From Escherichia coli (lineage in GTDB: Bacteria; Pseudomonadota; Gammaproteobacteria; Enterobacterales; Enterobacteriaceae): a DNA stretch of 64,000 nucleotides. Made by a program: the position numbers and the translations under genes. A model generated the notes under the pieces. The model had not been told where the DNA came from. It saw nothing but the letters and a program-made list of their open reading frames with translations, and did not search any database. Positions 44,841 to 60,725 of this stretch are shown piece by piece (the first letter of the stretch is position 1; the number at the start of each line of letters is the position of its first letter). The stretch lies in assembly GCF_003019035.1 (NCBI RefSeq), contig NZ_CP027447.1, one strand, 5' to 3'.

Positions 44841-45709
44841 TGTCCATTTTAATTGATAAAAACACCAAGGTTATCTGCCAGGGCTTTACCGGTAGCCAGG
44901 GGACTTTCCACTCAGAACAGGCTATTGCATACGGCACTAAAATGGTTGGCGGCGTAACCCCAGGTAAAGGCGGCACCACCCACCTCGGCCTGCCAGTGTT
45001 CAACACCGTGCGTGAAGCTGTTGCTGCTACTGGCGCTACCGCTTCTGTTATCTACGTACCAGCACCGTTCTGCAAAGACTCCATTCTGGAAGCTATTGAT
45101 GCAGGCATCAAACTGATTATCACCATCACTGAAGGCATCCCGACGCTGGATATGCTGACCGTGAAGGTGAAACTGGATGAAGCGGGCGTTCGCATGATCG
45201 GCCCGAACTGCCCGGGCGTTATCACTCCGGGTGAATGCAAAATCGGTATCCAGCCTGGTCACATTCACAAACCGGGTAAAGTGGGTATCGTTTCCCGTTC
45301 CGGTACACTGACCTATGAAGCGGTTAAACAGACCACGGATTACGGTTTCGGTCAGTCGACCTGTGTTGGTATCGGCGGCGACCCGATCCCTGGCTCTAAC
45401 TTTATCGACATCCTCGAAATGTTCGAAAAAGATCCGCAGACCGAAGCGATCGTGATGATCGGTGAGATCGGCGGTAGCGCTGAAGAAGAAGCGGCTGCGT
45501 ACATCAAAGAGCACGTTACCAAGCCTGTTGTGGGTTACATCGCTGGTGTGACTGCGCCGAAAGGCAAACGTATGGGCCACGCGGGTGCGATCATTGCCGG
45601 TGGGAAAGGGACTGCGGATGAGAAATTCGCTGCTCTGGAAGCCGCAGGCGTGAAAACCGTTCGCAGCCTGGCTGATATCGGTGAAGCACTGAAAACTGTT
45701 CTGAAATAA
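44840..45709 (+). CDS. sucD: Succinyl-CoA synthetase alpha subunit (289 aa)
   Basis: [45 protein letters not shown]; ATGA-type overlap with sucC. Confidence 0.97.
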
Positions 45710-45711
45710 AT

Positions 45712-45810
45712 ATCTGTAATAAGAAATAGCCCTCGCCGCTTCCCTCTACAGGAATGGCGAAGGGCTGTCGGTTTCGACATGGTTGGCCATCATATGATGG
45801 CCTTTTTTAT
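45712..45810 (+). ncRNA. sdhX: 3'UTR-derived sRNA SdhX (RybD) with intrinsic terminator
   Basis: Sequence immediately after sucD stop ending in hairpin ggttggccatcatatgatggcc plus T-run, the known location of SdhX. Confidence 0.6.
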
Positions 45811-47204
45811 GCCTTAAACGTTAACCACGGTCGAAATCTGACCGCAGGTTGAATTAATCCGGCTTCTTGTTGGGCTTCGATAACCGGACCAATATCTTTA
45901 TAAGCCGCTGGCGCTTCTTCAAGACGTCGTTCTTCGCGCAATGTGACGCATTGCCACGGCAGCGTTGACTCTTCAGTCGCGCTTGAGCGCATGGCCTGCC
46001 GACGCTGGCTGCGTCCTGCTCCGTGACTGCAAGACCACAGCCACTCCGGGTTGCCGCAACCAACCGCAAGCCACGAATAATCACCCATGGAACCGGGGAT
46101 TAACGCCAGATCGCCCGCGCGTGCCGGTGTTGCACCTTTGCGATGAATATTCATTTCATGCTCGTGAAGGATGATGTTATGCGGCACATCCACCACCAGA
46201 TGTGAATCATCCTGATGAAATAAATCGGCAAAACATACGCGAACCATTTCCGCAATGGTCACGCGATTTAACCATGCGTAACGCGCCGCCATTCCCATCG
46301 CTTGTAGATATTCCTCCGCCAGTCCGCCTGCCAGGCCATATAACCCGCTTTGTGGATGTTTATGTCCGGTGGGCCATTCAGCACGGGCGCGATCCATCCA
46401 GCGTCTTCCGACGTAAAAGCCAACATCTCGCGATCCACTGTGGATCATCACCACAATATCGCCCGTTTTCAGCCCTTGTTGCCAGGCAACATGGCGATCA
46501 ACCACGCTATCAACCACCTGAAGTTCAATAAAATGATTACCTGAACCCGGCGTACCAAGACAAGGATCGCGGAGTAATGGGCGGTCCGTTACCAGCAGGG
46601 CGGGTGGGGCATAACGCGAATGACTGTTATGCTCGTTAAGCCCAATGCAGCGGTCAATCTCTTGTACCATTCGGGGGATATTCGTGCGTGTCCAGAGACC
46701 TGCTGATGGCAAGGCTGACATGCACTCTGCCGGTCCGTCATCAAAAAGCGCGGTGAACGCCTGTGCGGATAACGGAACATCGCGCTCATTTTGCAGTAGC
46801 ACTTGCGTTAACCGCTGAGCGATGACGTCTTTATTCGCTTCGGCTTGCTCAAGTGTTAATCCGGTCGTCAGCAGCCGCATGCCACAAGAAATATCGGTGC
46901 CGATGGCCGCAGGAATGACTAAATCCGGCGTAGAGGCGACTACCGCGCCAACGGGGACGCCATTGCCGGGATGAAAATCTGGCGTCGCACAGGTCTGGCG
47001 TACGTAACCTGGATGGTCTGGTATCTTCACTTCTGCAAAATCAAGCAGTTGTGTCACTGCTTTTTCTTCCAGCGGCAGTTCGTCCGGCAGCAGTACGTGG
47101 GCACTGGCTCCTGATGGACGACATAATGAAACAATATTGTTGGCGCGGGAAAGTTGGATCCCTTTGCGCAGAAAGGCTTTATCAAGCCTTGAAAGATGAT
47201 GCAT
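45807..47204 (-). CDS. RtcB-family RNA ligase paralog (465 aa), first gene of accessory island
   Basis: RtcB motifs DISCGMR, PGSGNHFIE, MIHSGSRDVG, PGSMGDYSW, SCSHGAGR; about 60-aa N-terminal extension relative to RtcB; 3' end overlaps sdhX terminator. Confidence 0.8.
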   Translation of the reverse strand: MHHLSRLDKAFLRKGIQLSRANNIVSLCRPSGASAHVLLPDELPLEEKAVTQLLDFAEVKIPDHPGYVRQTCATPDFHPGNGVPVGAVVASTPDLVIPAAIGTDISCGMRLLTTGLTLEQAEANKDVIAQRLTQVLLQNERDVPLSAQAFTALFDDGPAECMSALPSAGLWTRTNIPRMVQEIDRCIGLNEHNSHSRYAPPALLVTDRPLLRDPCLGTPGSGNHFIELQVVDSVVDRHVAWQQGLKTGDIVVMIHSGSRDVGFYVGRRWMDRARAEWPTGHKHPQSGLYGLAGGLAEEYLQAMGMAARYAWLNRVTIAEMVRVCFADLFHQDDSHLVVDVPHNIILHEHEMNIHRKGATPARAGDLALIPGSMGDYSWLAVGCGNPEWLWSCSHGAGRSQRRQAMRSSATEESTLPWQCVTLREERRLEEAPAAYKDIGPVIEAQQEAGLIQPAVRFRPWLTFKA

Positions 47205-47961
47205 AACGCTGTCCTGAAATATAGACGTTAAACAACCCCCTTTATTGCGAGGGTAATTTTGTCTTTCCGGTCAGCAGCCAGCAAAAGGGAAAGAAAACGC
47301 GCGTAGTGTATGCAGCAATGACGATCAATACAAGATAAAAAAGACTATTAACAAACGGGGGTGTTATAAAAGGGGTCAGTTATCGACGCCAGATTGTAAA
47401 ATATGAAAAATGATAATTTCCAGTGGATATATTTTAAGATTTATTTTTACGCCTGTTTTTACGTCGGGTAACTATCCATTGTTGCCGTTTTTTAATTATC
47501 AAAAGTGGGATGAAAACAAATGGATTATTAATGATAATAAAACATGTCTTTATGACGAATAATGAAGATCTTATTTTAAATATCATTGTGTTATGCGCAC
47601 TGTGTGGTGTCGGAACACCTGTTGTTACGCTTATATCTGGTCGTTATTAACGCATTTCTCATATAATTAAATTACTGACATCTTGCAATCTCATCATATT
47701 CATATGTTCAAATTAGAAAATATTTTGCCAACAATATCACTTTTTCGACAAGTTAAATTAAGCATATTGAATTCGCATACAACGCGTTGGTGGTTTTGAA
47801 TTTATATTCATAGTGAATATACCACGACAAACAATATTCACTAAATGAATTAATAATACAAAATGATAAACGGGAATTATAGAAACCGTTTCTATATTCA
47901 TTCGTTCGTTTTTTCTGACCGATTACAGCGTTTAATTTTATCAAGTAACAGGAGAAGATTC
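47205..47961. promoter_or_regulatory. Long AT-rich divergent intergenic region (RtcB-like / hutU promoters)
   Basis: About 760 bp of very AT-rich DNA without ORFs >= 60 aa; only short ORFs such as 47531..47650 (39 aa, hydrophobic). Confidence 0.5.
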
Positions 47962-49659
47962 ATGAGTAAGCCTTCAGACCCGCGTATTGATACCAGCCGT
48001 GTAATCCATGCGCCACACGGTACGCAGCTGCACTGCAAAAACTGGCAGATCGAAGCTGCCTATCGGATGTTGCAGAACAACCTTGATCCCGACGTTGCCG
48101 AAAATCCACAGCATCTGGTGGTGTATGGTGGTATTGGTCGTGCGGCACGTAACTGGGAGTGTTTTGACAAAATCCTTGAATCACTGAAAAATCTGGAAGC
48201 TGATGAGTCACTGCTGGTTCAGTCCGGTAAACCCGTAGGCGTGTTTAAAACGCATACCGATGCGCCGCGCGTATTGATTGCCAACTCTAACCTGGTACCG
48301 CAATGGGCCAACTGGGATCATTTCAATGAACTGGATCGTAAAGGTCTGTTCATGTACGGCCAGATGACCGCTGGCTCGTGGATCTACATCGGTAGTCAGG
48401 GCATTGTGCAGGGAACGTTCGAAACCTTTGTTGAAGCGGGTCGTCAGCACTACAACAATTCGCTGAGTGGAAAATGGATCCTGACCGCAGGGCTAGGTGG
48501 TATGGGCGGTGCACAACCGCTGGCGGCGACTCTGGCGGGGGCGTGCTCATTAAATATCGAGTGCCAGCAAAGTAGCATCGACTTCCGTCTGCGTACCCGT
48601 TATGTCGATAAACAAGCGAAAGATCTTGATGATGCACTGGCGCTGATTAAATACCACACCGAACGCAAAGAAGCCGTTTCTATCGCGCTGCTGGGCAATG
48701 CGGCGGAAATTGTTCCTGAGCTGGTGAAACGTGCACGTCAGGGATCGATCAAGCCGGATCTGGTGACCGACCAGACCTCCGCTCACGATCTGGTCTATGG
48801 TTACCTGCCAATGGGCTGGAGCGTAGAACAATGGCGTGCTGCACAGCAGGATCCACAACAGCACGCCAGACTGCAAAAAGAAGCGGCGCAGAGTTGCGTG
48901 GCGCATGTTCAGGGGATGCTGGACTTCCAGGCGATGGGGATCCCGGTTGTCGATTATGGCAACAACATCCGCCAGGTGGCCTTCAACGAAGGTCTGCAAA
49001 ATGCCTTTGATTTCCCGGGCTTTGTTCCGGCTTATATTCGTCCAATGTTTTGTGAAGGCAAAGGTCCATTCCGTTGGGTGGCGCTGTCTGGCGACCCGGA
49101 AGATATCTATAAAACTGATGCCAAAATTAAAGAGTTGTTCCCCAATAACGTACTGACGCATCGCTGGCTGGATATGGCGCGCGAGCGCATTGCCTTCCAG
49201 GGACTTCCTTCACGTATTTGCTGGCTGGGGCTTGGTGAGCGTCACCTGGCGGGGCTGGCATTCAACGAAATGGTGCGCAACGGTGAACTAAAAGCACCGA
49301 TTGTGATTGGGCGCGATCATCTTGATACCGGTTCTGTCGCCAGCCCGAACCGCGAAACCGAAAGCATGCTTGATGGCAGTGATGCGGTTTCTGACTGGCC
49401 GTTGCTCAACGGTTTGCTCAACACTGCAGGGGGAGCAACGTGGGTATCCCTGCATCATGGCGGCGGCGTCGGGATGGGGTATTCACAACACGCCGGGATG
49501 GTTATTGTTGCCGATGGTAGCGAAGAAGCCGAAAAACGTCTGGCGCGTGTGCTGGTGAATGACTGTGCGTCCGGGGTTATGCGTCATGCGGATGCGGGTT
49601 ATGAGGCGGCAATTGAATGTGCCAAAAACTATGGTCTGAAATTACCGATGATTCGCTAA
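47962..49659 (+). CDS. hutU: Urocanate hydratase (565 aa)
   Basis: ORF 47863..49659 with start [10 protein letters not shown] preceded by GGAG; canonical urocanase sequence throughout ([53 protein letters not shown]). Confidence 0.9.
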
Positions 49660-49822
49660 ATATTAACGCCGTCATTTAATATTTGCGCTAATACAGGCGG
49701 AGAATAATTCGCCTGTATAACAATAATTATCAAAAAATATTTTTACATCGTCGAGAGAAATATCTCCCGACCCTCTATTGCTGTTTCAAAAAATGACCTC
49801 TCATTATGCAGGAGACTTTTTC

Positions 49823-51232
49823 ATGGAATCAAGCAGCCCTATCCGCAGTAAAAAGCCAGTATTAGAATCAAATACGATTAACGCCGTTCCTGAGTCTGCT
49901 CGCCACGGCTCGCCATCCAGTCAGTTTACTTTATGGCTAAGTGCTAACTTACAAATTACCGCTGTGGTGGACGGCGCGTTAGCGATTATTTTTGGCTCCG
50001 AAGCCATGTCAGCAATAATTGGTTTATTAATCGGTAATATTATTGGTGGTGCAGTAATGGCATTGCACTCGTCGCAGGGGGCAAAGCTGGGATTACCCCA
50101 GATGATCTCCAGTCGTATCCGCTTTGGCGTTAAAGGAGCGGCGCTACCGTTACTGATGGTGATTATTATGTACCTTGGATTTGCCGCGACGGGTACAGTA
50201 TTATCCGGTCAGGCGATTAACCGGATATTTGGTTTCGAATCGGCATCGACCGGAATTATTATTTTCGGCATGCTGACCGCGATGATCGCATTGGTCGGTT
50301 ATAAACTTATTCACGTCGTTGGCCGTGTTGCAGGGATATTAAGTATTCTGGGGTTTATTTACCTGGCTACTCAACTTAGCGGTCACTACGATGTGGCTGC
50401 GGCATTTGGTCAAAAGCCATTTAGTCTGTCGGTCTTTTTATTAACGATTGCTCTCTCTGCCGGATGGCAATTAACGTTTGCCCCTTACGCCTCTGATTAT
50501 TCCCGCTATTTACCCTCTGATACGCCAGCAAAATCAATCTTCTTTGCCACCTTTCTGGGAACCACGCTTGGCGCGCAATGTGCCATGACGTTTGGCGTGC
50601 TTGTTGCGGCCTGTGGTGCTAACTTCCTGAAGGATCAGGTTGGTTTTATGGGTGAGTTAGCCGGACCCACCTTCGCCATTCTGATTTATACGGTGATTGT
50701 TTGCGGCAAACTGACGGTGAACTGTTTGAATGCCTACGGTGGCTTTATGTCGATTCTGGCGACCGTCAGCGCCTTTAATAATCGCAGTCAGGTTTCACAG
50801 CGTGTTCGTGCTGCCTACGTTGTAGGGTTCGTGCTGTTGTCGATGGTCGTCGCGCTGGCGGCAAGCGCAGATTTTTTGAATAATTTCAAAAACTTCGTTC
50901 TGCTGCTGTTGACGGTATTTGTGCCGTGGAGCGCCATTAATCTCATCGACTACTACTTCATCTCACAAGGTAAAACCGATATTCCGGCACTTTATACCCC
51001 GGAAGGGCGTTATGGCGCGTATAACAAAACCGCTTTGACGTGCTATGGCGTAGGCGTGTTGGTGCAGATCCCCTTCCTGAATCAAAAACTGTATCAGGGA
51101 CCCATTTCTGTCCTGATGGATGGGGCGGATATCTCCTGGATTGTCGGCTTGTTAATTACCGCCGTTATCTATTACCCGTGGGCCAAACGCACCACCTGCG
51201 TTCCTGCTTATACGATTTATCCCGAGTCTTAA
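49823..51232 (+). CDS. NCS1-family (cytosine/purine/allantoin-type) permease, candidate urocanate/substrate importer (469 aa)
   Basis: Polytopic membrane protein; start MESSSPIRSKK preceded by GGAG at 8 nt; inside the hut-like operon. Confidence 0.7.
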   Translation: MESSSPIRSKKPVLESNTINAVPESARHGSPSSQFTLWLSANLQITAVVDGALAIIFGSEAMSAIIGLLIGNIIGGAVMALHSSQGAKLGLPQMISSRIRFGVKGAALPLLMVIIMYLGFAATGTVLSGQAINRIFGFESASTGIIIFGMLTAMIALVGYKLIHVVGRVAGILSILGFIYLATQLSGHYDVAAAFGQKPFSLSVFLLTIALSAGWQLTFAPYASDYSRYLPSDTPAKSIFFATFLGTTLGAQCAMTFGVLVAACGANFLKDQVGFMGELAGPTFAILIYTVIVCGKLTVNCLNAYGGFMSILATVSAFNNRSQVSQRVRAAYVVGFVLLSMVVALAASADFLNNFKNFVLLLLTVFVPWSAINLIDYYFISQGKTDIPALYTPEGRYGAYNKTALTCYGVGVLVQIPFLNQKLYQGPISVLMDGADISWIVGLLITAVIYYPWAKRTTCVPAYTIYPES

Positions 51233-51233
51233 T

Positions 51234-51824
51234 ATGGAACCGATGCTGATTTCTGCAATGGATAAGCCGCTGCAACCGTGGCGCAACGGCGGGGGGGTTA
51301 CCCGACAGCTGCTTGCCTGGCCCGATGATGAAAACTGGTTGTTGCGCATCAGTATGGCGAATGTCAGTCAGGATGGCCCTTTTTCAGCGTGGCCTGGCGT
51401 GGTTCGTGGCCTCGCGATCCTCGACGGGGAAGGGGTGAAGCTAACGTTTGCCGATTCGATCATCAACCTGCAACGTCACGATCCCGCCTTAATTTTCCCT
51501 GGAGAAGCTATGCCTGATTGCCAGCTGCTGGGCGGCGGGGTTCGCGATCTGAATGTTATGGCGCGGGAAGGCGATACGGGGATGTTGCGGGTGCAAAGTG
51601 CCGTTGACTGGCTTCCTCCGTCACTTGCGCAAGCGGGCCTGTTCACGCTGTGTGAAGGGGAGTGGATAAGCGGCAAGAAAAGGGTGTTTGTCGCGGCAAA
51701 TATGTTGTTATGGCTGGTTGCACCTGATGGCAGGCCCTGGCGTTTCGTACCACGGAAGAAAGTCTCCGTCGGTGAGCTGGCGGGCTGGTGGCTTTATTAT
51801 CTACGAGGGGAAAAATCCTTATGA
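51234..51824 (+). CDS. hutD: HutD-family protein (196 aa)
   Basis: Motif [12 protein letters not shown] typical of HutD/Ves family; 4-nt overlap with hutI start. Confidence 0.7.
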
Positions 51825-53032
51825 GTGCATTAACGCTCTGGCGAAATACCACGCTGGCGACGCTTTCCGCTAACGATTGGGGAGTGATTGAAAAGGGGGC
51901 ATTAATCAGCCGTGGCGACACTATTGTCTGGCTTGGCAAGGCCACGCAGATCCCTCGCGAACTGACGGCTGACATTACAGAGGAACACGACCTGCAGGGT
52001 AAGTTGCTGACACCCGGTCTGGTGGATTGCCATACGCATCTGGTGTATGGCGGCCAGCGGGCGAATGAGTTTGAGATGCGGCTGCAAGGCGTGGCTTATG
52101 AAGATATCGCCAGAGCGGGCGGCGGGATCTTATCTACCGTCAATGCTACGCGGGCGGCCAGCGAAACACAACTGTTTGAACTGGCGGCGCAGCGACTACA
52201 AAACTGGTTGCGTGAAGGCGTCAGTACGCTTGAAATCAAATCGGGTTATGGCTTAACGCTGGAAGATGAAGCGCGTTGTTTACGCGTGATCCGCCGCTTG
52301 CAGCAATCTACCGGGTTACATATTCAGTCTACGTTTCTCGGGGCGCACAGCCTGCCGCCAGAGTTTGCCGGGCGCAGTGATGATTACATTACGGCGCTTT
52401 GCGACTGGATGTGCGTGTTGCATGAACAGGGGCTGATTGATGCAGTTGATGCTTTTTGTGAAAACATCGCCTTTACTCCAGAGCAGGTACGGCGCGTTTT
52501 CAGTAAAGCGCAAAGCTATGGATTACCTGTAAAACTGCATGCCGAACAGCTTTCTGACCAGCAAGGCGCGGCGCTGGCAGCGGCGTTTTCTGCACTCTCC
52601 TGCGATCATCTGGAGTACCTGAGCGAGTCGGGGATCGCCGCCATGAAAGCGGCTGGAACAGTGGCGGTTTTGCTTCCCGGTGCTTATTACTTCCTGCGCG
52701 AAACCCATCTGCCGCCGATTGTCGCTCTGCGGGCCGCAGGTGTGCCGATTGCTATCTCCACGGACCATAATCCCGGAACGTCTCCCAATATGTCATTGCC
52801 ATTGATGATCAATATGGCCTGTACGCTGTTTCGCATGACGCCGCTGGAAGCCGTTCAGGGCGTTACGCGTAATGCGGCAAAGGCACTTGGACTTATTGAC
52901 CGGGGTGAACTTGCACCGGGATTACGGGCGGATATGGCGGTCTGGGATCTTAATCATCCACGTGAACTGGCTTACTGGTTTGGGCATCAGCCTTGCCAGG
53001 GGCTTATTGTCGGCGGAAAAAGGAGTTGGTAA
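51821..53032 (+). CDS. hutI: Imidazolonepropionase (403 aa)
   Basis: ORF 51788..53032 with start MSALTLWRN; amidohydrolase metal-binding motifs ([29 protein letters not shown]). Confidence 0.85.
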
Positions 53033-53982
53033 TGAAGCAAACATTTTTGCCGTGGAGTGGGCGTGTTGACTCGCAGGAAACCGGCATCAGCACTCGCTGG
53101 CATCAGCATGTGCAACCGTTTAGTGAACAAAGCCACGGCGATTGTACGCTGATTGGTTTTGCCGTTGATGACGGAGTGCAACGTAATGGTGGGCGAGCGG
53201 GTGCAGCAGGCGGACCGGGCGCGTTGCGCAGCATGTTGGGAAATATGCCAGTGCTCTGTGAAGGCGCTATTTTCGATATGGGCGATGTACAAAGCGAGGA
53301 CCACGCGCTGGAATCCGCACAAAACCGTCTGGCGGCTAACGTATCTACAGCCATTGCGCGCGGCAGTTTACCGGTGGTTCTGGGGGGCGGTCATGAAGTG
53401 GCGTGGGGAACATTTCAGGGGATTATGCAGTCGCGTCCGGATATTCAGCGGTTACTGATTGTGAACCTTGACGCGCATTTTGATTTACGGATGGCGGAAC
53501 AAGCCAATTCAGGTACGCCGTTTCGTCAGATGCAAGAGTGGAACGCGCAGCATGGCAAACCGTTTCATTATCGCGTGCTGGGAATAAGTCGTTTTGCCAA
53601 TACTCAGGCGTTATTTGATCGCGCTGACTGTCTCGGTGTGCGTTATTGGCTGGACGAATCTCTGCAATTTGAACGTGGTTTGCATGAGATCGCTAATGCG
53701 CTCTCGGCAGATATTCAGGCTTGTGACGCCATTTATTTAACGATTTGTCTCGATGTTTTACCAGGTTATCAGGCGCCCGGTGTTTCTGCTCCATCACCGT
53801 TAGGCGTGCCGTTAAATATTACTGAAGCCATTGTGAATTTAATCGCCGGTAGCGAGAAGTTGATTGCTGCGGATATTGCCGAACTTAACCCGGACCTGGA
53901 CCGCGATAATTTAACTGCGAAAGTTGCCGCTCGCCTGGTGACCAGTATTGTCCGGCGGGGGAAAACAGATAGAACAAATTAA
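53032..53982 (+). CDS. hutG: Formimidoylglutamase (316 aa)
   Basis: ORF 52993..53982 with start MKQTF after AAGGAG; arginase-family motifs GGGHEVAWG, NLDAHFDLR, SGTPFRQ, IYLTICLDVLP, VSAPSPLGVPL. Confidence 0.85.
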   Translation: MKQTFLPWSGRVDSQETGISTRWHQHVQPFSEQSHGDCTLIGFAVDDGVQRNGGRAGAAGGPGALRSMLGNMPVLCEGAIFDMGDVQSEDHALESAQNRLAANVSTAIARGSLPVVLGGGHEVAWGTFQGIMQSRPDIQRLLIVNLDAHFDLRMAEQANSGTPFRQMQEWNAQHGKPFHYRVLGISRFANTQALFDRADCLGVRYWLDESLQFERGLHEIANALSADIQACDAIYLTICLDVLPGYQAPGVSAPSPLGVPLNITEAIVNLIAGSEKLIAADIAELNPDLDRDNLTAKVAARLVTSIVRRGKTDRTN

Positions 53983-54032
53983 AACGTTGTCGCAGTAACC
54001 CGTTGTTAAACTCATCATGATAAGGAAACACA

Positions 54033-55703
54033 ATGAAAGGATTGATACGAAGAGTCACTGTCACCGTTGTGCTCTGGAGCGTTTGCTCCATCGCGATGGC
54101 AAAATCAACCATTACGCTGGATGGCGAACATCTCTCTATTGACCAGGCCTGGTCAATTGCATTAGGTGATAACGGCGTCAAAATCGCGTCGAACGCCATG
54201 GAGCGCATGGAAAAAAGTTATGATCTGGTGATGACTGCCGCGCATTCAGGTACGCCTGTTTATGGCTTAACCGTGGGCGTGGGGCTAAATAAAGATCAGC
54301 CCATATTTGATGCCAAAGGAAATTTAACGCCTGAGGTGATTGACGCATCGAAAAAATTTAATGCTGCCGCGCTGCGCGCCCATTCTGCGGGCGTCGGTCC
54401 GATGTTGCCGGATTATCTTGCCCGTCTCTCAATGGTGTTACGTTTAAATACTATGTTGCATGGGCAAACCGGCGCGCAGCCTTATATTGCCGAGTTGTAT
54501 GCCGAGTTTATTAATCGAGGCGTTACGCCGTTAATTCCGGCGCGGGGAAGTATCGGCGCAGCGGATATTATGCTCGCTTCACACGTTGGTCTGGTGATGA
54601 TGGGCGAGTGGAAAGCGCGGGTTAATGGCGTGGAAATGAGTGGTGGCGATGCGCTTGTGAAAGTGGGGCTTAAACCACTGGTCCCGCAGGGTAAAGATAT
54701 GCTGGCGATTTTATCGAACAACAGCGTCGGGACAGCCTACGCTATCGAAGCTGTTCGTTCGGCACGTCAGTTGCTGAATGTCAGCCCGGTGGTTTTCGCT
54801 ATGAGTCTGGAAGCGTTGAATGGTAACGTCGCACCAGTACTGCCGCAGTCAATTGCCGTGCGTCCTTTCCCGCAGTTGGCTGACTCTGCAAAAGAGATTC
54901 GCGATGCGTTAAACGGTTCATATTTATGGCATAAAGATGACGAACGTGCATTGCAAGATCCGTTATCGTTCAGAACTACGGTATATACCATTGCTGAATC
55001 AGTACGCGCTTTGCATGATGCTGAAGAGATCATAACCGTACAAATCAACAGTTCCGATGATAACCCAGCAACGGTGCTAAATGCTGACAAGGCGTATCAG
55101 GACTCCAGTCAGGTCGCGCAATATTTTGTTAAAGATGGCGCAGTCAGCGGCGGGATCTTCCCGACGGCGAACTTCGAATCGTTACCGGTTGCGCTTGCCA
55201 CTCAGCGTCTGACCGTGGCGTTGGTACATGTTTCGCATAACAGTATGCGTCGCTCGCTGCACCTGGAAGATGAGCACTTTACCGGTTTAACGCGCTTCCT
55301 GTCGGCACCCGGTAATAAAGGTCACGGCTTCGGTTCATTACATATCCCGTTTGTTGCGCTGCATGCGGAAAATGTCGATCTCGCTAACCCGGTTTCTTTC
55401 GATATTCAACCGGTAGCCGGAGGCATTGAAGATACGGGTGCCAATAACGACCACGCGGCGAGAAAATTGAAACAGGTTGTCGATAATCTGAACGTGATTT
55501 ATGGCATTGAACTGATGCATTCCGCACAGGCTCTCGATTTACGGTTGCAGGCCGATCCACAACTGGCATTAGGGAAATCCACCAAAGCAATGTTTACCGA
55601 ATACAGAAAAGTCGTGCCGTTTGTCGACCAGGATCGGGTCTTTACCCCAGATATTGCAGCTTCGCAAAAATTCTTAGAAGGATATGCTATAAATCAAAAA
55701 TAA
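54033..55703 (+). CDS. HAL/PAL-superfamily protein lacking the MIO-forming Ala-Ser-Gly triad, with predicted N-terminal signal peptide (556 aa); candidate MIO-independent lyase, not a canonical histidase
   Basis: Aligns along its length with histidine ammonia-lyase (PARGSIGAADIMLASH vs HAL GSVGASGDLAPLAH; SNNS vs NGTQ); N-terminus MKGLIRRVTVTVVLWSVCSIAMA-KS is Sec-signal-like with AxA site; AAGGAA RBS 5 nt upstream. Confidence 0.75.
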   Translation: MKGLIRRVTVTVVLWSVCSIAMAKSTITLDGEHLSIDQAWSIALGDNGVKIASNAMERMEKSYDLVMTAAHSGTPVYGLTVGVGLNKDQPIFDAKGNLTPEVIDASKKFNAAALRAHSAGVGPMLPDYLARLSMVLRLNTMLHGQTGAQPYIAELYAEFINRGVTPLIPARGSIGAADIMLASHVGLVMMGEWKARVNGVEMSGGDALVKVGLKPLVPQGKDMLAILSNNSVGTAYAIEAVRSARQLLNVSPVVFAMSLEALNGNVAPVLPQSIAVRPFPQLADSAKEIRDALNGSYLWHKDDERALQDPLSFRTTVYTIAESVRALHDAEEIITVQINSSDDNPATVLNADKAYQDSSQVAQYFVKDGAVSGGIFPTANFESLPVALATQRLTVALVHVSHNSMRRSLHLEDEHFTGLTRFLSAPGNKGHGFGSLHIPFVALHAENVDLANPVSFDIQPVAGGIEDTGANNDHAARKLKQVVDNLNVIYGIELMHSAQALDLRLQADPQLALGKSTKAMFTEYRKVVPFVDQDRVFTPDIAASQKFLEGYAINQK

Positions 55704-55785
55704 AATTTTTGTTGATTGTTTGTCATAATATCCATAGATATGATAATTGCTATCAATTTAATAATCTTCACTTAACTTGAATCAT

Positions 55786-55826
55786 AATAATCCGAAGGGC
55801 GTTTTGCTTTTCGGATTATTATTGTC
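55786..55826 (+). terminator. Terminator after the hut-like operon
   Basis: Inverted repeat ataatccgaagggcgttttgcttttcggattatt followed by T-rich tract. Confidence 0.6.
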
Positions 55827-55973
55827 TGATTGAGACAATTGTCACGCCAGGCTTACCAGGTTATAAATATCGAACATGATTTTTATAAAATATTGATTGC
55901 TGCTTTGGTTGCCATTACTTAGCAATAAGTAATGGTTTTTTGATAGTTTCAACTATTTTTAAGGGAAGGCATT

Positions 55974-56879
55974 ATGCGAGGAAAAATACCTAAAACGGAA
56001 CTGCTGGTGACTTTTGAGGTCGTCGCACGTCATGAAAGTTATACCAGAGCGGCAGAGGAGTTAGCGTTAACCCAAAGTGCAGTATTCAGACAAGTAAGTG
56101 CGCTGGAGGAATTTTTACGTACTCCGTTATTTTCACACTCTAAAAAACGCATTTTTCTTAATGATGCAGGGAAGTATTACCTGGGGATAGTAAAAGAAAC
56201 ATTAAATAAGCTGGAACGCGATACCAATACCATTATGACCTGGCAGCCTACGGTTCAGGTTATTGAACTTGCCGTTAATCCTACTTTTAGTACCCACTGG
56301 TTAATCCCAAATTTACATGAATTCACAAAGTTACATCCCGATATTATTGTTAATATTCATTCTTTAGCTAATAACGGCGATTTTCTTAATCGGGAGTACG
56401 ATGCTGTCATTATGCGCGAAAATTTTTGCGCGCCCTGGGCGGAAGTAGAATATCTCTTTGATGAGGAGATTTTGCCGGTATGCAGCGGCAGTTTGCTTGC
56501 AATGTCCGATCAAAAACTGTCAGTGGCAGAACTGCTTACTGAGTTACCACTTCTGCATCAAAGCACCCGTATTACTGGCTGGGAAGAGTGGTTTGCTTTA
56601 TCTGGCGTTAGCAGTCCGCTGGTCAATAACGGACCACGTTTCGATTTGCTTTCAATGCTGATTGCCGCCGTGCGCTCTAATCTCGGCGTGGCGCTGTTAC
56701 CACGGTTCGCTATTCAACATGATTTGGATAGTGGCGATATGGTGATTCCCTGTGATGTGCCTATTCGTACCGGTAATCGTTTTATTATGACGTGGCAGGA
56801 AGAGAAGTCTGACTCGCCGCACTTGCAGCAATTTCGTGAATGGTTGCTGGCGAAATCGGTCGTACCGCAGGAGATGTAA
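55974..56879 (+). CDS. LysR-family transcriptional regulator (301 aa)
   Basis: N-terminal HTH (ESYTRAAEELALTQSAVFRQVSALEE) and LysR substrate-binding domain. Confidence 0.85.
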   Translation: MRGKIPKTELLVTFEVVARHESYTRAAEELALTQSAVFRQVSALEEFLRTPLFSHSKKRIFLNDAGKYYLGIVKETLNKLERDTNTIMTWQPTVQVIELAVNPTFSTHWLIPNLHEFTKLHPDIIVNIHSLANNGDFLNREYDAVIMRENFCAPWAEVEYLFDEEILPVCSGSLLAMSDQKLSVAELLTELPLLHQSTRITGWEEWFALSGVSSPLVNNGPRFDLLSMLIAAVRSNLGVALLPRFAIQHDLDSGDMVIPCDVPIRTGNRFIMTWQEEKSDSPHLQQFREWLLAKSVVPQEM

Positions 56880-60565: not shown

Positions 60566-60725
60566 TTTTTCCTCCATCAGGTGCACGGCGATAAATCAGA
60601 ATCAGGAGAAGTAGATGCCTGAATAGAGATTCAGGCATCTACCTGCTATTACAACCTTACAAATAGCTGAAGTGTTGAACTGCAATAAGTGACGGGATGT
60701 CAGTTGGCTAAAAGTATTCGGATTT

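Follow-up and report, generated by a model that had tools for sequence, protein, structure and literature searches.

A near-invariant 127-bp block in the AT-rich region upstream of an accessory hutU operon in Escherichia coli

We analysed a 64,000-nucleotide stretch of Escherichia coli DNA (the window; contig NZ_CP027447.1), and in particular the gap that separates hutU from a divergent gene for an RtcB-like protein. The RtcB-like open reading frame (ORF) runs on the minus strand from its start at 47204, and hutU has its ATG at 47962 on the plus strand, leaving 757 bp (47205-47961) between them. An earlier note on this DNA had described the gap as unusually long, non-coding and AT-rich, and this description was confirmed. 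No other of the window's 56 annotated intergenic gaps is as long (second longest 551 bp, median 40.5 bp), and its GC content is 32.5% against 51.5% for the window. The 500 bp of lowest GC in the 64 kb (28.4%, from 47399) lie inside it. RefSeq features were absent from the gap in all 12 of the 12 E. coli genomes inspected, and strain SCU-301 was 100% identical to the window over the gap region.

The gap was found not to be one unit. A module junction lies at 47312/47313 and a shift in constraint at 47663/47664; the 757 bp are a composite that results from island mosaicism, and only the right-hand 300 bp behave as a functional unit. The features are as follows.

47205-47312, minus strand: rtcB-proximal segment, on the side of the rtcB promoter or 5' leader and outside the hut module
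47313-47663, no strand assigned: fast-evolving AT-rich spacer, the left edge of the hut module
47531-47650, plus strand: 39-codon hydrophobic ORF, not a conserved gene
47662-47667, plus strand: -10-like nATAAT at the left edge of the conserved block, TATAAT in the window and A/G-ATAAT elsewhere
47664-47790, no strand assigned: conserved non-coding block of 127 bp, 28% GC, 172-298 bp upstream of the hutU ATG
47795-47812, no strand assigned: ARG-box-like palindrome TTTGAATTTATATTCATA, with the core TGAAT-N4-ATTCA at 47797-47810
47811-47843, no strand assigned: inverted repeat TAGTGAATAT-N13-ATATTCACTA within a heptamer cluster, arms and spacing partly kept in E. marmotae
47878-47896, no strand assigned: near-perfect palindrome TATAGAAAC-C-GTTTCTATA (ATAGAAACCGTTTCTAT at 47880-47896), E. 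coli-specific
47921-47961, plus strand: conserved promoter-proximal stretch, 2-3 substitutions across three lineages
47962-49659, plus strand: hutU, first gene of the operon, matching the TIGR01228 profile and with a RefSeq start identical to ours

We compared this region in three lineages, namely E. coli, Escherichia sp. E2586 (contigs L097 and L098) and six E. marmotae-type loci. Outgroup loci were chosen as contigs encoding near-identical HutU, and the E2586 contigs were collinear at 94% nucleotide identity. Differences per compared site were counted for each pair.

hutU 5' four-fold degenerate sites: E. coli-E. marmotae 38/97; E. coli-E2586 32/97; E2586-E. marmotae 38/97
47446-47663: E. 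coli-E. marmotae 84/197; E. coli-E2586 24/216; E2586-E. marmotae 82/195
47664-47790 (block): E. coli-E. marmotae 5/127; E. coli-E2586 7/127; E2586-E. marmotae 2/127
47791-47961: E. coli-E. marmotae 26/169; E. coli-E2586 28/171; E2586-E. marmotae 19/169

In all three lineage pairs the four-fold sites just downstream had diverged by 33-39%, and the block by 1.6-5.5%. For E. coli against E. marmotae, the difference between the block and the adjacent four-fold sites was highly significant (Fisher p = 3e-13). Relative to neutral, the block evolves at about 0.1x, the promoter-proximal 171 bp at about 0.4x and the spacer at 1x or more. Within the gap, conservation across these Escherichia species is confined to the block and the promoter-proximal stretch. 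Homology between E. marmotae and E. coli that is detectable by blastn resumes exactly at 47663, and 47664-47790 contains no indels in independent assemblies. The two E2586 assemblies differ by one T in a homopolymer (T6 versus T5) at the equivalent of 47741-47745, inside the block. The probable cause is a mistake in the assembly of the NCBI contig, which also carries frameshifts in hutU and in the permease gene.

The flanking segments behaved differently. Between 47313 and 47663 the divergence from E. marmotae was 42-49%, compared with 34.8% at hutU four-fold sites, and all indels among the E. coli alleles fell within this interval, where 4 bp are inserted after 47361 and 12 bp are duplicated in tandem after 47441. 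E. marmotae lacks, through a deletion, the terminator-like hairpin seen at 47467-47486. The rtcB-proximal 108 bp (47205-47312) had 5 segregating sites across the E. coli alleles. From these alignments we read 47664-47790 as being under strong purifying selection at every position, since recombination could mimic such constraint only by striking the same 127 bp in two separate lineage pairs, and since four of the block differences are common to both outgroups. By the same comparison, 47791-47961 is under moderate purifying selection and 47313-47663 is unconstrained AT-rich DNA.

The constraint does not act on a protein, because it is spread evenly over the codon positions and there is no conserved ORF. 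No ORF of at least 12 codons in the gap is intact in all three lineages. The sole surviving frame in the block has 21 codons on the minus strand; its three substitutions are all non-synonymous and its synonymous sites are equally invariant. Diversity within E. coli was also considered as decisive proof of constraint (2.7% in the right-hand 516 bp against 16% at four-fold sites, p = 3e-14) and was rejected. This within-species signal is weak, because hutU diversity is mosaic, with 0-30% segregating four-fold sites by segment in the 11 E. coli alleles, and because the adjacent hutU 5' end is itself low (6.6% at four-fold sites).

The full gap was present in 144 of 5426 complete E. coli genomes (2.7%, the same as the module), while 47205-47312 alone was shared, at 97-99% identity, by 151 further genomes that lack hut. 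In one island without hut (L002) the sequence is homologous to the window up to 47312 exactly and again from 55956, a point 18 bp short of the start of a LysR gene, with 463 unrelated bp in place of 47313-55955. The 8.6 kb from 47313 to 55955 are an accessory module of which the AT-rich tract forms the left edge, 47205-47312 belongs to the rtcB side, and the hut-less form of the island is a replacement rather than a clean deletion. The module comprises hutU, an NCS1 permease gene, hutD, hutI, hutG and a gene for a HAL-family lyase. HutU scores 934 bits against TIGR01228 (cutoff 375) and is a bona fide urocanase and not a thiourocanate hydratase. HutU lacks close relatives beyond Escherichia: identity drops there from 98% to at most 90%, with Vogesella and other Betaproteobacteria as the nearest named organisms (86-87% at the amino-acid level). 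Orthologous upstream regions were sought via HutU in GTDB representative genomes and this route was rejected; the best 80 matches came from Betaproteobacteria and others at no more than 87%, and their upstream DNA was unrelated and GC-rich.

Neither annotation nor profile search placed a transcription-factor gene inside the module, and no GntR-family or hutC gene was present there. The GcvA-subfamily LysR gene that adjoins the module also occurs in islands without hut, and this LysR-type regulator has been regarded as a member of the methylaspartate cluster (PMC4682846). In the literature we found no work on the E. coli hut module or its regulation, and no chromatin immunoprecipitation (ChIP) or expression data for a hut+ strain. 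The region had no paralogues in plasmids, the E. coli genomes showed the orthologous site only, and when metagenomes were scanned for a 22-mer of the block, all contigs retrieved were E. coli-like. A repeat or mobile element was rejected on these grounds, there being no other copies in E. coli genomes, plasmids or metagenomes. Pseudogene remnants in the spacer were rejected as well, as none of six gap ORFs had a family match (Pfam and NCBIfam, E<=1).

We then scored 14 transcription-factor consensus motifs against 300 shuffles. Only the ARG-box-like palindrome at 47795-47812 stood out, matching the ARG-box consensus at 16/16 positions, a score reached by 0/300 shuffles. The 64 kb hold one exact copy of TGAATWWWWATTCA, located at this palindrome. 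E. marmotae retains the TGAAT-N4-ATTCA core of this palindrome, and E2586 nearly does. On inspection, no second ARG box was found at the canonical 3-bp spacing, the 21-bp offsets matching poorly (7/16 downstream). ArgR operators are normally paired ARG boxes; having no tandem partner, the palindrome therefore lies outside the usual definition. Heptamers of the type ATATTCA/TGAATAT occurred 5 times in 47696-47900 against 0.26 expected (p of about 0.035 after correction for word choice). Neither E. marmotae nor E2586 has the palindrome at 47878-47896 in unbroken form, and it is altered by a substitution in one E. coli allele.

The best plus-strand sigma70 candidate, nATAAT at 47662-47667, scored 8.4, with a shuffle mean of 8.6; its ATAAT is invariant, while the first base is T, A or G across alleles and species. 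Closer to hutU, a -10-like TTTAAT at 47931-47936 is conserved, and a Shine-Dalgarno sequence AGGAG can be read at 47950-47954. Four promoter-like hexamer pairs were found against 4.7 expected from shuffles. Other matches were at chance level, including a CRP-like 7/10 match at 47726-47741, ATA-N9-TAT at 47866-47880, and a 7/10 match to the GcvA consensus CTAAT-N9-ATTAG. For the HutC operator the best match was 9/12, which 49% of shuffles reach. Matches in the region to NtrC, Fur, IHF, Lrp and PurR consensus sequences were likewise at chance level.

Several further candidates were rejected. Sharing of k-mers between the gap region and the upstream region of the LysR gene was not beyond chance, giving no common motif. 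A regulon defined by TGAAT-N4-ATTCA was dropped, as the only other occurrence in the window (60620-60633) forms the end of a hairpin with a 15-bp stem and the copy in a related locus (L109) has N3 spacing. By inspection, no correctly placed GG-N10-GC of a sigma54 promoter was present on the plus strand, and no XerC/XerD core accompanied the single ARG box, as a Xer/cer-like site would have.

We favour, with a probability of roughly 55%, the reading that the last 300 bp are a control region, composed of a weak factor-dependent promoter and a distal protein-binding block, placed after a neutral AT-rich spacer. These 300 bp would be the cis-regulatory region of the hutU-permease-hutD-hutI-hutG-lyase operon. 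A weak, activator-dependent sigma70 promoter would lie near hutU, with TTTAAT at 47931-47936 as the candidate -10 element. Proteins would bind to the TGAAT/ATTCA palindromes and to the invariant block (roughly -150 to -280), as a distal operator or an upstream activating region. Through this region host factors could control a module that has no regulator of its own, candidates being ArgR, global regulators of the CRP or Nac type, or the neighbouring GcvA-like LysR protein. The upstream 350 bp would act only as an AT-rich spacer that separates the divergent rtcB promoter, and may be the kind of DNA that H-NS coats. Complex regulation, one of the possibilities raised in the earlier note, is supported indirectly, by about 300 bp beside hutU under apparent purifying selection that include the near-invariant 127 bp. 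On this reading the region is an ordinary, uncharacterised promoter-operator region and not a new kind of element. A role at the DNA level is favoured because as RNA the block is predicted to be less structured than its shuffles and has no compensatory pairs.

A number of observations weigh against this reading. No sigma70 candidate in the region scores above shuffles, and the CRP, Nac, FNR, HutC, GcvA and H-NS consensus matches are all at chance level. The ARG-like box is single, unlike the paired boxes of ArgR operators. Recombination between species does occur in the module and could mimic constraint. A run of 127 continuous near-invariant bases seems long for transcription-factor sites alone, and the block edges, with nATAAT on the left and a T-run on the right, would also fit a transcribed unit.

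In the main rival explanation the block is transcribed from nATAAT at 47662-47667, starting near 47674. It would then make up the 5' portion of a leader some 290 nt long, or else a short RNA terminated at the T-run (47794-47800), and would control hutU after initiation, as a platform for protein or small RNA (sRNA) binding, by attenuation or by Rho loading. We regard this as possible but doubtful. The -10-like hexamer stands exactly at the onset of conservation with an invariant ATAAT, and a T4-T7 run follows the block. However, the first base of the hexamer varies, conservation does not extend to the -35 region, shuffles reach promoter scores just as high, and neither a GC-rich hairpin nor a called terminator was found at the T-run. 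A scan of 45000-50500 on both strands with Rfam 15 (E<=1) gave 0 matches. The predicted fold of the block was worse than that of 196/200 shuffles on the plus strand (z = +1.97; z = +0.86 on the minus strand), and the whole 298 nt gave z = +0.43 and -0.50. Low structure could itself reflect a single-stranded binding platform. RNAalifold predicted 27 pairs in the block with 0 compensatory and 3 one-sided changes, the variation being too low for a strong test. It pairs 47725-47732 with 47786-47793, and three variable positions (TGG, TAG, CAG, CAA) always keep plus-strand pairing; yet the one-sided changes are all transitions, so that pairing is kept by default, and the helix is AU-rich and closes a 53-nt loop, unlike a canonical terminator. 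The sRNA suggested in the earlier note, or a structured leader, is not supported by family matches, folding, compensatory pairs or a canonical terminator. Attenuation of the tnaC or speFL type would need a conserved leader peptide with a sequence that senses the effector, and no ORF of at least 12 codons intact in all lineages offers one. A separate explanation takes the 39-codon ORF at 47531-47650 as a small protein or tnaC/speFL-like leader followed by a Rho-dependent spacer. The ORF exists with the translation quoted for it in the earlier note; it is intact in the 11/11 E. coli alleles examined and in E2586, and its stop lies 14 nt before the block, with a spacer of about 300 nt after it. 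This resembles the tnaC-tnaA layout, in which a leader ORF is followed by a spacer. Against this, the six E. marmotae-type loci have a stop at codon 10 or 12 and a frame-breaking 10-nt indel, yet they retain the operon and the block. The ORF region diverges at a neutral rate (41.7% from E. marmotae against 34.8% at four-fold sites), and its stop is lost in one E. coli lineage (ECONIH1). Between E. coli and E2586 there are 7 amino-acid versus 5 synonymous changes (of the nucleotide changes 8 are non-synonymous and 5 synonymous, so that dN/dS is very roughly 0.5, from small numbers). Neither this ORF nor five other gap ORFs matched Pfam or NCBIfam at E<=1, and where a weak ribosome-binding site had been proposed no Shine-Dalgarno sequence was seen. 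The small protein of the earlier note was not upheld, and we give it, or a leader peptide, only a very slight chance.

Two further explanations were weighed. H-NS-type silencing, also raised in the earlier note, would make the region xenogeneic AT-rich DNA whose main role is to keep an acquired operon silent, with the block as a nucleation and anti-silencing site. It fits the composition and the apparently horizontal origin of the accessory module: the GC content of the gap is the lowest in the window (30.4% for 47313-47961 against 51.5%), the module is found in 144/5426 genomes, and the closest HutU proteins outside Escherichia, among the best matches, are betaproteobacterial at 86-87% amino-acid identity. 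On inspection, the block also matches the H-NS high-affinity motif at 8/10 and 8/9. Binding that depends on composition and shape does not, however, explain the near-invariance of 127 consecutive bases, and the equally AT-rich 350 bp beside them evolve neutrally. Nowhere in the region does the H-NS motif match better than expected by chance, promoter-like sites show no excess, and we consider silencing as the main role unlikely. Alternatively, nothing beyond a short core promoter might be functional, with the conservation a by-product of recombination patches and low local diversity. E. coli diversity is indeed mosaic, the right half of the gap at 2.7% being about 2x below the 6.6% of adjacent hutU 5' four-fold sites, and identical tracts between species occur elsewhere in the module. 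One of these, 53984-54363 at the hutG-lyase junction, has 0 differences between E. coli and E. marmotae (L093) over at least two 127-bp windows, where the module average is 10%, which indicates a recent inter-species recombination tract. Such patches do not account for four-fold divergence of 33-39% next to a block at 1.6-5.5% in all three lineage pairs, and the four block differences common to both outgroups look like descent and not recent exchange. We judge a purely incidental origin of the conservation to be quite improbable.

The context lends the region some added importance: the operon ends in a lyase resembling ergothionase and histidine-betaine lyases and adjoins glutamate-fermentation (methylaspartate) genes. 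This last gene (54033-55703, plus strand) encodes 556 amino acids and is annotated as HAL/PAL/TAL family only. Against the hutH equivalog model it scores 277 bits, where the cutoff is 539, and its best PDB match is the Treponema denticola ergothionase 6s7j (293 bits versus about 170 for true histidine ammonia-lyases). It has GAAD in place of the G-A-S-G-D that forms the 4-methylideneimidazole-5-one (MIO) group of histidine ammonia-lyases. Residue roles in the Treponema ergothionase, including the thiolate-binding Lys384, have been described in a preprint (10.64898/2026.04.22.720169), and the E. coli protein has Ile at or next to that position, allowing for a numbering offset of one residue. 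The N-terminus is signal-peptide-like (MKGLIRRVTVTVVLWSVCSIAMA). From these features the lyase is a candidate periplasmic trimethylammonia-lyase of the histidine-betaine or ergothioneine type without the MIO motif. Its predicted place points to a supply of urocanate to HutU, HutI and HutG and then to the adjacent glutamate-fermentation genes. A 2026 paper stated that E. coli has no annotated ergothionase homologue and doubted a 1962 report of the activity (PMC13405746). The lyase gene, an ergothionase candidate present in 2.7% of complete E. coli genomes, is possibly the gene behind that disputed 'E. coli ergothionase'.

On a bolder view, which we think has little chance of being right, the block would be a new operon-specific cis-acting sensor or operator, either an unstructured leader RNA platform or the site of a novel regulator. 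The operon would then differ from a classical hut operon: the pathway would be fed by the MIO-less periplasmic lyase acting on histidine betaine or ergothioneine, and expression would be coupled to diet-derived betaines in the gut. Most of the long AT-rich gap is neutral spacer, and there is no longer reason to propose a small protein in it. The target that is left, for the wiring of a regulator-less accessory module into Escherichia regulation, is the 127 bp and the adjoining 170 bp. In a minority of gut E. coli strains, this control region may govern the timing of trimethylamine release from histidine betaines in the diet.

The island that follows sucD was compared over 45807-56000 of the window and in loci L002, L084, L087, L093 and L097, and was found in at least four forms. 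These are sucD-rtcB-hut (the window), sucD-mngRAB-rtcB-hut, sucD-mngRAB-rtcB-[463 bp]-LysR without hut, and the sucD-hut form of E. marmotae. The mngB-rtcB-hut arrangement was seen in 2022H048 and 2015C-4136CT1. In the hut-less order (e.g. AR_0006 and L002), sucD-mngRAB-rtcB is followed by the 463 unrelated bp and then by LysR-cobO-fumarase. Part of this replacement (L002 8260-8380) resembles an ERIC (IRU) repeat, …AAGTTGCATGTGCTGCATCGATGTTCGCTCACTCAGGTCACTTACTTATGTAAGCTTCTGG…. In E. marmotae 783 bp lie between sucD and hut, and rtcB is deleted save for its last 114 bp. In the window the RtcB-family protein (45807-47204, minus strand) has 465 amino acids; residues 214-464 match RtcB models below their cutoffs, and the N-terminal 213 residues gave no match. 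Its gene stands alone, without rtcA or rtcR, and is a split pseudogene in strain EC42405.

Some other observations were made on the neighbouring genes. Strain EC19 (L092 4079-4776) carries an IS1 inserted between hutU and the permease gene, which probably uncouples the downstream genes from the hutU promoter. The hairpin mentioned above (60606-60647, minus strand) has a perfect 15-bp stem and a 4-nt loop, GTAGATGCCTGAAT-CTCT-ATTCAGGCATCTAC. It lies in the methylaspartate cluster between a DUF4387 gene and a GltP-like symporter gene and could be an internal terminator or an RNA-stabilising element. The related locus L109 (Logan SRR27755633, 900-5400) has a permease and lyase pair with 76-77% nucleotide and 85% protein identity. 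Upstream of the pair is a decayed hutU remnant, itself preceded by the HutC-operator-like TTGTATATACAT. Some 60 bp ahead of the start of the permease gene there is a TGAAT-N3-ATTCA palindrome, and an AraC-type gene is found downstream of the lyase.

Finally, we compared the region with known control regions. The hutUH operons of Klebsiella aerogenes and Salmonella are controlled through a HutC operator, a CAP site and a Nac site. Our region resembles hut(P) in its position ahead of hutU, with which a histidine-type catabolic operon of an enterobacterium begins, and in a weak promoter expected to need activators, with ATA-N9-TAT at 47866-47880. In contrast to hut(P), the module has no hutC, and the HutC, CRP and Nac motifs match no better than expected by chance. 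The region is also about 3x longer and has no sequence in common with other enterobacterial hut loci, and the enzymes encoded here are closest to betaproteobacterial ones. In E. coli gcvTHP, GcvA binds sites at about -214 to -271 and a promoter-proximal site, and Lrp, CRP and PurR bind too. The likeness here is a long AT-rich upstream region in which the conserved or occupied DNA is over 150 bp away from the operon start, the operon being one for amino-acid catabolism, together with a GcvA-subfamily LysR regulator encoded beside the hut module. Unlike gcvTHP, the region has no significant GcvA motif, its k-mers are not common to the LysR upstream DNA beyond chance, and the regulator is also found in hut-less islands. 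The region would work like these and other long upstream regions of amino-acid catabolic operons that are bound by several factors, but judged on sequence criteria it does not appear to belong to either the hut(P) or the gcvTHP regulon. With the H-NS-silenced 'promoter islands' (PMC7054387) it shares a very low GC content in an accessory, apparently acquired cluster. It differs from them in having no excess of promoter sites over composition-matched shuffles, and in a strong sequence-specific constraint that silencing alone does not require. Set beside ArgR operators, it has a single box with no partner 3 bp away, but this one 18-bp palindrome is a perfect ARG-box match and a predicted site that is conserved across species.

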